Below, piece by piece: positions 14,220 to 32,328 of a stretch of DNA of 57,071 nt. The translations under genes were made by a program, and so were the position numbers. Each line of letters begins with the position of its first letter. Within the stretch, counting starts at the first letter, position 1. Source of the DNA: a virus (lineage: Duplodnaviria > Caudoviricetes); IMG/VR virus record IMGVR_UViG_3300021959_007110, positions 1 through 57,071 of that record; one strand, 5' to 3'. The notes under the pieces were generated by a model that did no database searches, was not told where the DNA came from, and saw only the letters and a program-made list of their open reading frames with translations.

Positions 14220-14304
14220 TGGCTGTGGAGGATGGAGTCGAACCATCACGCCTTTCGGCACACGAGAAACAGTCGTGCGTGTCTACCAGTTTCACCACCC
14301 CACA
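14220..14304 (-). tRNA. tRNA-Asn(GUU), 85 nt, long variable arm, encoded CCA
   Basis: TGTGGGG-TG-GTGAAACTGGTAGACAC-G-CACGA-CTGTTTC-TCGTG-TGCCGAAAGGCGT-GATGG-TTCGACT-CCATC-CTCCACA-G-CCA folds into a cloverleaf with U1-A72 and G73. Confidence 0.9.
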
Positions 14305-14309
14305 ATAAA

Positions 14310-15140
14310 TTATGCTGCGAGTTGAAGCTGGGTATCTAGCGCCGCTATCATACGGGTCATACCGATACCCCCACCTACGCGAGGGAAAAAGTCAAACTTT
14401 AAAAATTCCTCAAGTTCAGCCTCTACACGTTCTTTGCCAAACAGTTCAAAGAGTAGATTTGCGTAGGCTCCCTCAGTGATAGTATGAAAAGTGTCACGCA
14501 TCATCTCAACGTCACAAGAACGTTCAGCTGAACCAATAGTTTCCATGCCGCCAAGAATTACATCAATTTTTTTAGAGTGAATTCCATCTTCATAACGGCT
14601 CATGTTCCAGAACGGAGAAGTAAACTCAGGGAAGTCAGTAATCATAGCAGTACTAAAATCATTAAACATTGCGGTTTCATGCACTGCTTCAAGTTCTCCA
14701 TCAACCTTATAGTGCTTTTGCCATGCCTCATAGGTCTTCTCAATCGGTCGATCAAAGCCAAGATAATCTACAAGTTCATATTCCATCTTTTTAAGGTCTA
14801 CAATGTCACCGGGCATTTCAAATTCAAACATTGGGAAGATAATATCATGCCTACCAGGAATAGCGTTAGGTTCTTGTCTGTATGAAGTTGAGACACAAAA
14901 AAAGCCCTTTTCATTGGGCTGAGAGAGTAATTCATGTTCTAACCACATCTGACCAGTTTGTGGAAGAGGCCAAACTTGACCAGCATAGTTATAAGTAGCA
15001 ACGTTAAACGGATCTTCGCAAGCTGCAAGGATAGAAAGACGATTCTGTGTGTGAACTTCTTTAAAACCTTTATCTAAAAAAAATGACCTTAAAAGGCCAA
15101 CAGTGTGAGTAAATTTTGTAGGAGAGATTAGTTGAGTCAT
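14310..15140 (-). CDS. class IIb aaRS catalytic-domain protein (AsnRS/asparagine synthetase-like) lacking the anticodon-binding domain
   Basis: Start moved to MTQLISP (GAAAGG RBS). Motif 1 LRSFFLDKGFKEV, LPQTGQMWLE, motif 2 SYRQE...RH...FPMFEFE, ETIGSAER, motif 3 GGGIGMTRM. No N-terminal OB fold. Confidence 0.85.
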   Translation of the reverse strand: MTQLISPTKFTHTVGLLRSFFLDKGFKEVHTQNRLSILAACEDPFNVATYNYAGQVWPLPQTGQMWLEHELLSQPNEKGFFCVSTSYRQEPNAIPGRHDIIFPMFEFEMPGDIVDLKKMEYELVDYLGFDRPIEKTYEAWQKHYKVDGELEAVHETAMFNDFSTAMITDFPEFTSPFWNMSRYEDGIHSKKIDVILGGMETIGSAERSCDVEMMRDTFHTITEGAYANLLFELFGKERVEAELEEFLKFDFFPRVGGGIGMTRMIAALDTQLQLAA

Positions 15141-15161
15141 TATTATACCTTTCTTGTATAT

Positions 15162-15231
15162 AAAAAGACGCGCAGATTTAAAACCTGCGCTCAAATTAAC
15201 CAATTATATAAGAAGTATAACCAGTGAGCAA
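15162..15231 (-). promoter_or_regulatory. sigma70-like promoter followed by a terminator-like leader hairpin
   Basis: TTGCTC-N17-TATAAT, then GCGCAGG-TTTTAAA-TCTGCGC-GTC-TTTTT ahead of the aaRS-like gene. Confidence 0.6.
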
Positions 15232-28422: not shown

Positions 28423-29354
28423 AGATACTAATAACAGGAGGGATGGGTTTTATAGGAGCACATCTAGTAGCAGAATTAGGACGGACTCATGACGTAGATA
28501 TACTTGACGGATTTACCGATGAGTATGTAGGCTATAAATATATTCATCGAGGTACAAAAGGTTTACAAGAAACTAATGAGATTGAGAAACGTCATAGAAA
28601 ACTCAATCTAAAGTATAGAATTGATTTAGTAAAAGGTAAATTCAATCAATACTATAAAAAATGGAGTTTTGAAGATATTCCAAGAGCAAACTATGATTTA
28701 GTACTTAACTTTGGAGCTTTGTCAGAAGCTATCCTATCACAACATTTTCCAAAATTTACTTCAGATTCTATAGTACAAGGATTAAGTTTAATTAAATTGT
28801 ACCTTCCTAAAACACCTGTTCTACATATAAGTAGTAGCATGGTTTACGGCACTTGGGAAGGAGTAATTGACGAGCAGTACTCTTTAGGAGCTGTGGACCA
28901 TTACGGGGACAGTAAAATAAAGGCAGAAACTATCTGCGGAGAGAATGATGTAATTTTGCGACCCATACATGTTTATGGTATGGGAGATGGTAAATTTTCA
29001 ATCTGGATGAATATAGAAAGACAGATTGCAGCTGCAAAACCTGTTATGGTTGAGAGAGCTGGTTGTATCTACATAGACGATTTCGTTTTAGCAATCAAAA
29101 ATATTTTAGACAGCTGGTGTCCTGGCATTTATAATATTTCATACGCATTTACGAGAAACGCGGAAGCACTGGCTAATATATATCCAGAGCCCTTTGATGT
29201 TCAGTATAAATCAGGACCAACGGGTAAACCAAGAGGGCTGCTAGATAATAGCAAACTAATAAATACATTTGATGTAAACTTTAAATTTACAAATTATGAT
29301 GATACAGTGAGAGACTACTATAGAAAATATGAAAATTTTTGTAAGAAACAATGA
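28419..29354 (+). CDS. NAD-dependent epimerase/dehydratase
   Basis: ITGGMGFIG, SSSMVYG and YGDSK. Confidence 0.9.
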   Translation: MKILITGGMGFIGAHLVAELGRTHDVDILDGFTDEYVGYKYIHRGTKGLQETNEIEKRHRKLNLKYRIDLVKGKFNQYYKKWSFEDIPRANYDLVLNFGALSEAILSQHFPKFTSDSIVQGLSLIKLYLPKTPVLHISSSMVYGTWEGVIDEQYSLGAVDHYGDSKIKAETICGENDVILRPIHVYGMGDGKFSIWMNIERQIAAAKPVMVERAGCIYIDDFVLAIKNILDSWCPGIYNISYAFTRNAEALANIYPEPFDVQYKSGPTGKPRGLLDNSKLINTFDVNFKFTNYDDTVRDYYRKYENFCKKQ

Positions 29355-29646
29355 TGTTGGAAAAGCGCTTCGCATCTTAAAGAAAAAACTACATAATGAA
29401 GGTGTTATGAAAGAAGTGCGTGATAGGCGACATTTCATTTCTAGAGGTGAAAAATCAAGGTTAGCGGCTAAAGCAGGAGCAAAACGTTGGCAGAAGAAGA
29501 GACAAGATCTAGAAAAACAGTTCATTCGCGAAGAGCGAAATATGCTGCGAAATAGCAGGAAAAATAAACGCAATGTTCAAAGACCTAACAAAGGTTCAAA
29601 TCAACAGCGAACGCAACGTTACTCTGGCAATCAGAATAAACGATAA
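29329..29646 (+). CDS. rpsU: ribosomal protein bS21 with a C-terminal extension
   Basis: MKIFVRNNDVGKALRILKKKL..EGVMKEVRDRRHF....EK.R. Confidence 0.9.
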   Translation: MKIFVRNNDVGKALRILKKKLHNEGVMKEVRDRRHFISRGEKSRLAAKAGAKRWQKKRQDLEKQFIREERNMLRNSRKNKRNVQRPNKGSNQQRTQRYSGNQNKR

Positions 29647-30172: not shown

Positions 30173-30461
30173 TGAACCTTTTATTCTTGTAGAAACAGAA
30201 ATTATAAATTTTGAAGAACTTAAAGCAGGTAATATTAATTTAATGTACTACATTATTGAAATACATAATACAGAAAATGATGAAATAGGAGTAGTGACAG
30301 AAGAGATTGATGGTGAACAGACTATCAAAAAATTTGATACCTGGTCTAAAGCAAAGGCTATGTCTGGAACACTAAATAGAGATACCCCTGAAAATCTCTC
30401 TACTCACATAGTAACCATTAATGAAACTGCTACAAAAGATAAAGAAGTGGATAACGATTGA
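30144..30461 (+). CDS. hypothetical protein
   Basis: ORF track; true start uncertain (possibly MYYIIE at 30243). Confidence 0.55.
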   Translation: MILTKLFLDNEPFILVETEIINFEELKAGNINLMYYIIEIHNTENDEIGVVTEEIDGEQTIKKFDTWSKAKAMSGTLNRDTPENLSTHIVTINETATKDKEVDND

Positions 30462-30807
30462 CCATTGTGTTGATCTTGTCGTTGATATATTATTAATTAT
30501 ATGGGAAGTTATCAGTAGTCCAATACTTATAGCTATGCGTCTTATAAGACACTTTGTAGGTGAGTGGTTTACTGAAAAAATTAAAGCATGTGTGCGTTGG
30601 ATAGTACATTGGTTTGCTCATAAACGTGCAGTTAGACTTGAAAAGGGACATGGAATATTCCGTACCTATTGGTACCTAATACTGCCGAGTCCTTTTATTA
30701 TTATCGCAATTTGGATGATTACAATGGTCAGCATTGGTATAGGGCAAGGTTATAATGAACTTAAAACAACTAAACCAGACAGCACATTGTTACAAATTTT
30801 TGAATAG
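30421..30807 (+). CDS. membrane protein
   Basis: Two hydrophobic segments. Confidence 0.65.
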   Translation: MKLLQKIKKWITIDHCVDLVVDILLIIWEVISSPILIAMRLIRHFVGEWFTEKIKACVRWIVHWFAHKRAVRLEKGHGIFRTYWYLILPSPFIIIAIWMITMVSIGIGQGYNELKTTKPDSTLLQIFE

Positions 30808-30811
30808 AACT

Positions 30812-31162
30812 AGTGCTTCGTTTGAGGAGTAGTAAAATAGACGGGCTGGACTCGGGGGCAGTACCCGACGCCTCCACCATAAACACTTGGAGTAGAAAAT
30901 GGATGAAGTAGTAACTTATTTGCTATTGAGATTTGTACAATATGGATTAATAGCATTGTCAATTGGATCATTGCTTGAAGTGTTTATGATGGGGGCGAAC
31001 TAGGATCGACAGACGTAATAAAAACAATGCCGAGAAGCAGGTGCGCAAGCGACCTCAACCGCAAGAAAACAAACAATTGCAAATGATAATTTCGCAATCG
31101 AGGATTACCGCATAGCGGCATAATCTCACGGGGTATGGTTCCACCTAGCAACAGAAAGGGCC
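30812..31162 (+). ncRNA. ssrA: circularly permuted two-piece tmRNA, alphaproteobacterial type
   Basis: The acceptor piece ends TCGGG-GGCAGTA-CCCGA-CGCCTCC-A-CCA (30879). The coding piece starts GGGGGCGAACTAGGATCGAC (30991). The acceptor stem has G3.U70. Tag frame 31079-31123 reads ANDNFAIEDYRIAA*. Outer ends are approximate. Confidence 0.95.
30899..31003 (+). CDS. putative 34-aa single-TM peptide in the tmRNA intervening segment
   Basis: GGAG-tagaaa-ATG; translation MDEVVTYLLLRFVQYGLIALSIGSLLEVFMMGAN*. Confidence 0.45.
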   Translation: MDEVVTYLLLRFVQYGLIALSIGSLLEVFMMGAN

Positions 31163-31185
31163 TTTACAACTCTTATGAGGTTTTA

Positions 31186-32328
31186 ATGTTTAATTTTAAT
31201 ACAACTCCCCGTCTCGTAATCGGCGAAAACAGATTACAGTTCTTAGGCAGAATCCTGTCTGACCTCAATGTTAGAAATCCCTTAATCGTAACTGGACCAA
31301 ACTTAGTAAAAACAGATATTGTTATTGAAGCACAGAAATGGTCTTGGGCAGAACACGTATTTTACGATTTAGTACAAGACCCAACTACTCAAAATGTATT
31401 AGATTGTGTTGAGTATGGAGTAAGTAAAGAGGTAGATGGCGTTATAGGTATCGGAGGTGGATCATCTCTTGACGTAGCAAAAGTTGCTGCTGTTCTCTTA
31501 AAACAAGAAACCTCACTTGATAATATCTGGGGTGTTGACAACATCTATAGTTCAAGATTACCTTTAGTTCTTATACCTACTACAGCTGGTTCAGGATCAG
31601 AGGTAACACCTGTCTCAATTATTACTACAGGTGAGACAACAAAAATGGGAATTGTCTCTCATAAAATCATTCCTGATGCCGCAATTTTAGATCCTCTCCT
31701 TACAGTCTCGTGTGGTCCTCGGCTTACAGCGTATAGCGCAATTGATGCAATGGTTCATGCTATTGAGTCTTTTACTTCCACAAATCTTAATAATAATCCG
31801 TACTCAAAAATGTTAGCGCTCGAAGCATGTCGTTGGTTAGGTAAATCAACAAAAACTGCTATTTTAGAGCCAGAGAATATTGAGGCAAGAGCTAATGTAC
31901 AATATGGCGCAATGTTAGCTGGGCAGGCTTTTGGTAACTCACCAGTCGCAGCTGTACATGCTCTTGCGTACCCTCTTGGTGGACATTTTAAACTACCACA
32001 TGGTTTAACAAATACCTTGGTTCTTCCTGGTGTTTTATCATATAATCAAGAAGTTACAGATTATTCTTCTTTAGCTTTAGCCCTATTCCCTCATGATGCA
32101 GGAGAGATTAACTACTACAAAAGTGATGTTGTTGAAATTATGTGTAGAAATATCAAAGAACTAGCAGAATTAGCTGACATCAATACACAAATGAGTTACT
32201 ACGGAATTACTAGTAAGGATATCCCGGCTCTAGCAAAAGAAGCAATGAAACAAGCAAGGCTTTTGGTTAATAACCCAAGAGAAATTACACAAGAAATAGC
32301 TGAAGATATTTATCAGAAAGTTTTATGA
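31186..32328 (+). CDS. iron-containing alcohol dehydrogenase
   Basis: GIGGGSSLDVAK, IPTTAGSGSEVT, DAMVHAIE and HALAYPLGGHFKLPHG. GAGG RBS before MFNFN. Confidence 0.93.
   Translation: MFNFNTTPRLVIGENRLQFLGRILSDLNVRNPLIVTGPNLVKTDIVIEAQKWSWAEHVFYDLVQDPTTQNVLDCVEYGVSKEVDGVIGIGGGSSLDVAKVAAVLLKQETSLDNIWGVDNIYSSRLPLVLIPTTAGSGSEVTPVSIITTGETTKMGIVSHKIIPDAAILDPLLTVSCGPRLTAYSAIDAMVHAIESFTSTNLNNNPYSKMLALEACRWLGKSTKTAILEPENIEARANVQYGAMLAGQAFGNSPVAAVHALAYPLGGHFKLPHGLTNTLVLPGVLSYNQEVTDYSSLALALFPHDAGEINYYKSDVVEIMCRNIKELAELADINTQMSYYGITSKDIPALAKEAMKQARLLVNNPREITQEIAEDIYQKVL

Follow-up and report, generated by a model that had tools for sequence, protein, structure and literature searches.

A likely peptide-gene cassette within the intervening segment of a permuted phage tmRNA gene

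The stretch of DNA analyzed here, referred to as the window, is a 57,071-nucleotide (57-kb) virus record of a marine phage (IMG/VR record IMGVR_UViG_3300021959_007110, Caudoviricetes; CheckV completeness about 34%) that carries a permuted, two-piece transfer-messenger RNA (tmRNA, ssrA) gene with an intervening segment (IVS) between its two pieces. Judged from its sequence, this IVS is likely to be a self-contained small-gene cassette made up of the arms of a basal stem, a GGAG motif, an ATG and a 34-codon open reading frame (ORF) for a membrane-type peptide (Table 1). Comparison with related loci showed that the ORF evolves as protein-coding sequence under purifying selection at the amino-acid level, that the phenomenon is restricted to long AT-rich viral IVSs, and that IVSs are exchanged as cassettes between phage tmRNA genes. 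The tmRNA precursor very probably serves as an mRNA as well; this proposal of a first-pass annotation of the window gained strong comparative support, as the frame is under purifying selection and ORFs fill nearly all long AT-rich viral IVSs.

The first-pass annotation had described a 111-nt IVS with GGAG-N6-ATG and a 34-codon frame, and the sequence reads exactly so. The ORF, translated as MDEVVTYLLLRFVQYGLIALSIGSLLEVFMMGAN, is preceded by an in-frame TAG two codons 5' of the ATG and ends at a TAG (31001-31003) whose last base is position +13 of the coding piece. As had also been claimed, the frame crosses the mature 5' end at 30991 and stops 13 nt inside the coding piece. Counted from the coordinates, the RNase P site falls within codon 31, between AU and G, and codons 31-34 and the stop fall in the mature coding piece. 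The frame is 34 codons long versus a mean of 13.5 codons in 500 shuffles of the interior (p = 0.016). The transmembrane (TM)-like core noted in the first pass was recovered: the best 19-residue Kyte-Doolittle window scored 1.72 for the window peptide and 2.17-2.41 for its relatives, and AlphaFold2 predicted one helix over residues 2-33 with a mean predicted local distance difference test (pLDDT) score of 93.8.

Homologous IVSs were compared for conservation of the ORF and its ribosome-binding site (RBS) and for synonymous bias, the check that had been proposed. The members of the window's peptide family, F1, were taken from a tmRNA-only scan and a leader-only anchor (CCA, 5' arm, GGAG), with no coding-based search. 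The leader anchor yielded 29 loci, or 30 with the window: 14 with a window-type ORF, 13 with an unrelated ORF of the type found in phage Melnitz, one with another ORF and two odd ones. Once locus L061 was added, F1 comprised 15 loci with 11 distinct ORFs. A back-translated pattern also matched unrelated DNA (7 of 16 metagenome and 3 of 9 viral loci), which was dropped. Starts in F1 were set by hand, as ATGAAATG in eight loci misleads first-ATG picking. The ATG was present and the frame open in 11 of 11 ORFs; ten have 34 codons and one (L441) has 32, because its acceptor strand contains a TAG that cuts the frame short by two codons (stop at +7). The leader reads GGAG in 10 of 11 and GGGA in the remaining one, spaced 5-7 nt from the ATG, and length differences of 1-2 nt sit in the leader only.

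The substitution pattern in F1 was that of a coding sequence. When the 157 observed substitutions were re-placed at random at like-base positions in codons 2-26, assuming mutation independent of position, 90.4 +/- 4.9 non-synonymous codons were obtained versus 62 observed (0/5000 simulations reached this value). Stop codons averaged 4.75 in the simulations versus none observed, and just 20/5000 had none. The replacements were conservative, with a mean BLOSUM62 score of 1.23 versus 0.01 simulated (0/5000). To discount shared descent, each change was also counted once (61 events), which gave 31 non-synonymous changes versus 39.5 +/- 2.8 (24/10000), no stops (718/10000) and a mean BLOSUM62 score of 0.97 versus -0.02 (0/10000). 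In a comparison of all six frames, the proposed one had a synonymous fraction of 0.46, versus 0.08-0.31 for the rest; it alone was open in 11 of 11, and each of the others had stops in 6-11 of the 11 members. The warning that T-rich sequence may give a hydrophobic frame by chance was countered by the shuffle, antisense and substitution tests; chance is excluded because the homologues keep the ATG, the frame and its length and show a deficit of non-synonymous changes.

More distant members were found at the peptide level. A profile of six F1 peptides searched against 1.84 billion representative proteins gave 8 matches at E <= 1e-3, four of them at <= 1e-10. Diverged members retain TY.LL[RK].VQ.G......G.L.E; down to 43% identity, Y7, L10 and V13 are invariant and T6, R11, G16 and G23 nearly so. 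All peptide-pattern members with DNA at hand lie in Rfam-confirmed two-piece tmRNAs, whose acceptor stems differ (GGGGGUG, GGGGUAG, GGGGCUG) with only the C-terminal tail of the peptide altered. The 78-residue library protein P0005 has an F1-like N-terminal helix, MSELVTYVLLRFVQWG.., followed by an unrelated tail of about 50 residues with no tmRNA end; by its sequence, it may represent the F1 module in a longer form or another context. The window peptide had no match by tblastn against GenBank phages, a DNA search with the locus matched only the conserved tmRNA ends (in 8 records), and all scores in a protein atlas search were below 0.9.

The excess of ORFs was not confined to F1. Scans that used tmRNA sequence only gave 41 viral loci with an IVS of 80-110 nt and at least 119 with one of 108-138 nt; pooled, these were 164 loci with 120 distinct IVSs among the matches listed. 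The 58 distinct IVSs with a guanine-plus-cytosine (GC) content below 0.35 had a mean longest sense ATG-ORF of 33.1 codons, versus 11.4 in antisense and 13.8 in shuffles, with p <= 0.05 in 45 of 58. No excess was seen at higher GC: sense, antisense and shuffled values were 13.1, 8.6 and 14.9 codons for the 44 distinct IVSs at GC 0.35-0.50 (p <= 0.05 in 2/44), and 17.4, 18.5 and 15.7 for the 17 at GC >= 0.50 (p <= 0.05 in 1/17). A wider set of 256 viral loci held 197 distinct IVSs, 77 of which were AT-rich and at least 95 nt long; 75 of these 77 contained an ORF of at least 23 codons, with an ATG start in 64 of 75 and a Shine-Dalgarno (SD) core 4-17 nt upstream of 40 of the 75 starts, versus 6.7% at control positions.

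An anchor unbiased with respect to IVS length, the coding-piece start only, gave 112 loci with 93 distinct IVSs from 80 of 120 stretches, including eight earlier loci. The lengths of AT-rich viral IVSs were bimodal. Short ones (9-70 nt) had a longest ORF of at most 17 codons, and in the long ones (about 96-266 nt) an ORF of 27-77 codons nearly fills the segment in 21 of 22. The same anchor gave at least 120 bacterial loci, 102 of them with a recognizable acceptor strand; among the matches listed, the median bacterial IVS was 34 nt and only 2 of 102 exceeded 100 nt. One of these two, in L219 (a Hyphomicrobiales metagenome-assembled genome), is 132 nt long with a GC of 0.45 and has a 31-codon ATG frame versus 14.8 codons when shuffled.

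At least eight recurrent, mutually unrelated peptide families were found in the viral IVSs, plus several pairs and singletons. The stop lies beyond the processing site in F1 (+11 to +13), in F2 (..ICINNYS.., 14 distinct members), where its position shifts between +13 and +59 depending on the host tmRNA sequence, in F3 (..YLSG..YDGGE, 12-13 distinct with Melnitz-type relatives), which runs to +42, and in F7 (MSYQGIF.., 3 distinct). It lies inside the IVS, at -12 to -1, in F4 (..KYLG[KL], 11 distinct) and in the TM-like families F5 (MDREIW.., 4 distinct), F6 (MNDTSRL.., 5 distinct) and F8 (..WSICAD.., 8 distinct). The F2, F3 and F4 peptides are not hydrophobic, and each family retains its own physico-chemical type. 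In each of the 7 families tested, the proposed frame had the lowest ratio of non-synonymous to synonymous differences (pN/pS; 0.23-0.53 versus 0.62-2.14). The cultured phage Melnitz, which grows on an OM43 methylotroph host (H5P1), carries a 54-codon cassette behind a window-type leader, and its GenBank record has no coding sequence annotated within the tmRNA.

The IVS families are scattered over the tree of the mature tmRNA parts. One pair, L080 (F3) and L063 (F2), shows 100% identity across 449 nt of upstream sequence, the two tmRNA pieces and the 1 kb that follows, but carries unrelated IVSs (40% identity). Identity breaks just past the CCA and returns a few bases before the mature 5' end, and the arms, together with a CTTGAGG-N6-ATG leader, come with each cassette. 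Coding pieces were at least 95% identical in 22 pairs drawn from 179 loci with full flanks, and 7 of the 22 carried unrelated IVSs, including a long versus short pair (80 and 33 nt). The window IVS is 78-88% identical to those of its F1 relatives, whose tmRNA pieces are 45-61% identical to those of the window and whose 1-kb flanks are unrelated. Such exchange probably takes place when tmRNA genes recombine through their strongly conserved halves, which flank the IVS.

Several observations weigh against reading the IVS as a gene. All relatives are metagenomic contigs, and chimeric assembly at the conserved tmRNA flanks is possible in principle. The F1 tests free of coding-pattern ascertainment were smaller and gave 61/5000 and 130/5000 with few sequences, and a test on three sequences over 15 codons gave 1577/5000. 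Variable columns per codon position numbered 18, 9 and 22, a weak periodicity when taken alone. The contrast of pN/pS with the shifted frames was modest in F3, F4 and F5, and the Melnitz-type set (7 distinct, 26 events) showed no deficit of non-synonymous changes (17 versus 18.5; 3139/10000), so that conservative replacements (117/10000) and an in-frame 24-nt indel were its sole pointers to coding. Eight representative IVS peptides had no Pfam or PHROG family, with sub-threshold chance matches only. No sigma-70-like promoter was found on the + strand in 30300-31400, where the only promoter-like site lies on the minus strand (30724-30697), upstream of the tmRNA gene. Four metatranscriptome runs were compared with the locus (six hold parts of the stretch), and none covers the window IVS; these four contain contigs of relatives that share the tmRNA ends and carry other IVSs.

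The remaining points of this kind concern the RNA itself. The last three bases of the GGAG (30890-30892), together with UA (30893-30894), are predicted to pair with 30972-30976, which may hold translation low. The IVS also shows conservation at the RNA level: the hairpin of F1 has 34 pairs with 93.6% of cells paired, a value reached by 11/500 shuffles, with slid controls pairing at 31-47% and the structure itself derived from these same sequences. Its covariation score was 0.180 versus 0.146 (12/500). Three pairs changed on both sides (75/500), and one change is compensatory, from G-C to A-U at alignment columns 13/96 (GGAG to GGGA with CUU to UUU). The F1 basal stem is invariant except for one A.C mismatch; complementary ends were found in all IVSs, with covariation of the arms from one family to another. 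The fold of the window IVS is more stable than those of its shuffles (z = -2.6; 4/200 as good). On these sequence data the F1 hairpin is moderately supported. Part of the F1 sequence conservation thus appears to be at the RNA level, with fold and frame constrained together; the fold does not account for the frame-specific substitution pattern.

If the IVS is read as a small gene, the following course of events may be proposed. The primary transcript probably also carries upstream genes of the + strand, and the basal stem formed by the IVS ends would continue the acceptor stem. Translation of the peptide would take place on the primary transcript, ahead of processing of the tRNA-like domain. 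Because the 3' side of the hairpin pairs with some of the GGAG bases, ribosomes can probably load only during transcription, in the interval that precedes synthesis of the 3' arm. To reach the stop, an F1 ribosome would have to open the 3' arm and the acceptor-stem strand. Since the stop and the four codons ahead of it belong to the 5' strand of the acceptor stem, translation would exclude stem folding or RNase P cleavage on the same molecule, and a full-length F1 product would need an uncleaved RNase P site. Our best guess is that the peptide acts on the host envelope as a small membrane protein of the phage and is tied to ssrA for its expression, not its function.

Translation itself, with a functionless peptide, could instead act as in leader-peptide control, delaying acceptor-stem folding or RNase P cleavage and so tuning tmRNA output to ribosome availability. 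We regard this as improbable. It agrees with ORFs that span nearly the whole IVS and end within 15 nt of the RNase P site or past it, with the need for an F1 ribosome to melt the 3' arm and the acceptor-stem strand, with a partly sequestered GGAG, and with families that are mutually unrelated, as expected were the sequence secondary. However, amino acids are conserved beyond the openness of the frame (the BLOSUM62 score of 1.23 versus 0.01 and the invariant Y7, L10 and V13), each family holds its own physico-chemical type, and compact phage genomes would fill such a slot with coding sequence anyway.

A sensor resembling arfA is about equally doubtful as the general explanation. RNase P cleavage would leave a stop-less mRNA, and its 30-residue product would be tagged and destroyed, accumulating only if tmRNA is limiting. 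Stop-less mRNAs are substrates of tmRNA. The geometry proposed in the first pass is right for F1, where the final codons and the stop come from the acceptor-stem strand and a cleaved IVS would be stop-less (cleavage within codon 31, stop at +11 to +13). The C-terminal tail also appears dispensable, as it is cut short in L441 (stop at +7) and differs between members according to the acceptor stem. In contrast, F4, F5, F6 and F8 (28 distinct IVSs) stop inside the IVS, so that the excised RNA would be a normal message, and in F2 the place of the stop changes with the tmRNA that hosts the cassette. Such a sensor is possible for F1 and would not be a general rule, because four of the eight families stop inside the IVS. 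The arfA mRNA itself is cut by RNase III, not RNase P. It resembles the F1 arrangement in having an ORF across a hairpin-associated processing site, a stop-less message after cleavage and a link to trans-translation; it differs in the nuclease, in that no similarity to a rescue factor was seen, and in that half of the IVS families do not cross the site.

An IVS that functions as RNA only, with a hairpin that joins the acceptor-stem strands for processing and an untranslated frame that is a by-product of AT-rich or T-rich sequence, is very unlikely. It would explain the universal basal stem and its covariation between families, the moderate support for the whole F1 hairpin, the fold of the window IVS (z = -2.6) and the partly paired GGAG. 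It would not explain why synonymous excess and conservative replacements occur in one frame only, why the ATG is kept in 11 of 11 members and stops are absent from that frame alone, or why, among 77 long AT-rich IVSs unrelated in sequence, 75 contain ORFs (11.4 codons in antisense) with SD cores before 40 of 75 starts versus 6.7%. Bacterial IVSs, moreover, fulfil the structural job with a median of 34 nt. A gene on the opposite strand (minus-strand frame 30810-30971, 53 aa), to which a 30-codon antisense ATG-ORF in the IVS segment of the window and stop-free antisense runs of 27-35 codons in six F1 members might point, was refuted by the six-frame comparison, with stops in all three antisense frames in 7 to 11 of the 11 F1 members and synonymous fractions of 0.08-0.31 versus 0.46 in sense, and it would run antisense through the CCA end and the T-arm.

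The tmRNA gene was identified with Rfam. The models alpha_tmRNA (RF01849; 121.4 bits, cut-off 50) and tmRNA_permuted (RF04321; 105.6 bits, cut-off 47) matched 30757-31165 and 30815-31123 on the + strand, respectively; ARAGORN made no tmRNA call at the locus. The permuted two-piece order was confirmed, with an acceptor piece that encodes its CCA, the IVS and the coding piece. In the acceptor stem, CGCCUCC-ACCA runs up to 30879 and GGGGGCG begins at 30991; G3 faces U to give the alanine identity pair. The features of the locus are listed in Table 1.

Table 1. Features of the permuted tmRNA gene and of its intervening segment, in window coordinates
Feature	Position	Strand	Basis or remark
Acceptor piece: T-arm and 3' strand of the acceptor stem, ending in the encoded CCA	30815..30879	+	Rfam RF04321 and RF01849 alignments
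IVS, 111 nt, GC 0.30, removed on maturation; exchangeable cassette	30880..30990	+	Rfam, sequence
IVS basal stem, 5' arm UAAACACUU	30880..30888	+	pairs with 30978-30986
GGAG, Shine-Dalgarno-like, 6 nt ahead of the ATG	30889..30892	+	sequence
34-codon ORF, probable single-helix hydrophobic peptide; ATG at 30899-30901, stop included in the coordinates	30899..31003	+	ORF list, selection tests, profile matches, helix prediction
UGCUU, partner of GAGUA (30890-30894), within codons 25-26	30972..30976	+	pairing
IVS basal stem, 3' arm AAGUGUUUA, also codons 27-30 of the ORF	30978..30986	+	pairing
Coding piece, beginning with the acceptor-stem 5' strand GGGGGCG; mature 5' end GGGGGCGAA at 30991	30991..31165	+	Rfam alignment
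Tag reading frame ANDNFAIEDYRIAA and stop, with a hydrophobic end	31079..31123	+	Rfam alignment, translated by eye

Large-phage cargo flanks the tmRNA locus on both sides, and from 27331 onward every gene of the window lies on the + strand. The cargo includes ribosomal protein S21, a core resembling asparaginyl-tRNA synthetase (AsnRS) next to a tRNA-Asn, a lysozyme, a family A DNA polymerase (at most about 41% identical to those of cultured phages), DnaB, a primase, an NAD ligase and many sugar-modifying enzymes. The class II AsnRS-like core (14220-15203, minus strand, 297 aa) directly adjoins the tRNA-Asn, and the S21 gene (29329-29646, + strand) lies about 1.2 kb upstream of the tmRNA; together with the tRNA-Asn they form a cluster of translation-related cargo in the phage. 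A 128-aa ORF (30421-30807, + strand), hydrophobic by eye and with no Pfam family, ends 8 nt before the start of the tmRNA model, and the 5' extension of the alpha_tmRNA model (30757-30814) overlaps its 3' end. A prophage junction was considered and rejected, as phage cargo lies on both sides and the record is a virus contig.

Some loci departed from the common pattern. Behind a window-type leader, L424 (5041-5286) has an IVS of 162 nt. Its frame of 82 codons starts with TTG, is rich in Cys and His (..KPTKCQNH..RDCTGG..KVCDACGY..), continues into the tmRNA and has no Pfam family. In L440 and L447, the leader anchor is present with no coding-piece start within 320 nt, and the IVS may be disrupted or much larger. 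In metatranscriptome runs X15 and X16 (compared over 30600-31400), contigs join the acceptor and coding pieces across another IVS, for example of 103 or 88 letters; these contigs stem either from related tmRNAs that had yet to be processed or from carried-over DNA.

Permuted tmRNA genes with an IVS were reportedly described in bacteria, in Alphaproteobacteria, by Keiler, Shapiro and Williams in 2000 and by Sharkady and Williams in 2004 (as cited in PMC9004378 and PMC11915505). The phage gene is like them in the order of its pieces, in removal of the IVS by tRNA-processing enzymes and in the stem formed by the IVS ends. It is unlike them in the IVS itself, which is too short to code in bacteria (median 34 nt in the 102 sampled) and is 111 nt with a conserved ORF in the phage. 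Dual-function RNAs such as SgrS/SgrT, RNAIII/delta-haemolysin and SR1/SR1P combine a functional RNA and the mRNA of a small peptide. One transcript has both roles there as here, but in the tmRNA gene the coding part is a discarded spacer of the precursor, and translation and maturation are likely to be mutually exclusive.

The type I toxins hok, tisB and ibs are small, single-helix hydrophobic peptides whose RBS is sequestered by pairing between 5' and 3' parts. The F1 peptide is likewise small, hydrophobic and predicted to form one helix, and its RBS is partly sequestered, whereas the F2, F3 and F4 peptides are not hydrophobic. T4-type phages shuffle small accessory-gene cassettes between conserved flanking elements, and the E. 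coli tyrT tRNA transcript carries the small tpr gene. The IVS resembles the former in that short phage ORFs are exchanged between conserved repeats and the latter in having a peptide gene on a tRNA precursor; it differs in that its flanks are functional tmRNA halves and the ORF lies inside the RNA gene.

In the portion available of the tmRNA database paper, the contents recorded for IVSs are a repetitive element and a tRNA-Ala gene, with no ORF among them. Group I introns occur in tmRNA, according to the part of the source available (PMC11915505). Homing-endonuclease ORFs in group I introns of tmRNA and tRNA genes are comparable in that a protein gene lies in a removed segment of a stable RNA and is mobile between similar host genes; unlike these introns, the IVS is removed by tRNA processing, not splicing, and its products have 23-77 residues. 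An Rfam scan of the window found the two tmRNA models only and no ribozyme, and no nuclease domain was found with Pfam or PHROG. In L037 (3083-3748, minus strand), a 222-codon frame runs from the IVS end across the mature 5' end and scores 17.5 bits for GIY-YIG, below the cut-off of 27; judged by sequence, an element of the homing-endonuclease type may have inserted into this tmRNA gene.

The Melnitz paper describes the two-piece tmRNA of the phage and a 3' glutamine riboswitch, and the word 'intervening' has no occurrence in the portion available. The aptamer of a glutamine riboswitch (RF01739) immediately follows the 3' end of the tmRNA gene in L061 (1903-1956; 60.1 bits) and in Melnitz (L162, 3356-3404; 52.8 bits), and its placement inside the IVS was rejected for both; none was found in the window at the Rfam gathering threshold. 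A full-text literature search, with subscription journals outside its coverage, found no report of an ORF in a tmRNA IVS. We rate the IVS-borne gene as kin to dual-function RNAs and to genes nested in removed precursor segments of stable RNAs.

Few bacterial RNAs have been studied as thoroughly as tmRNA, and the spacer in the permuted form of its gene has been treated as disposable. If the IVS-borne genes are real, dozens of unannotated phage micro-proteins, many of them membrane-type, would get a defined genomic address and become open to systematic discovery. The conserved halves of an essential RNA gene would act as recombination handles for accessory cargo. The tmRNA precursor would be a natural case of maturation versus translation on one molecule, in which questions of co-transcriptional folding and processing are testable, and a cultured system is at hand in phage Melnitz on its OM43 methylotroph. 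As a bolder and more speculative proposal, which we hold only tentatively, the phage tmRNA IVS may be a dedicated docking site for small protein genes, shuffled by recombination, where a translating ribosome holds the acceptor stem open so that each precursor gives either a peptide or a mature tmRNA and, in the families that read past the processing site, the cleaved cassettes become tmRNA substrates. If true, this would define a new class of bifunctional precursor RNA that balances ribosome rescue against membrane-active accessory peptides.

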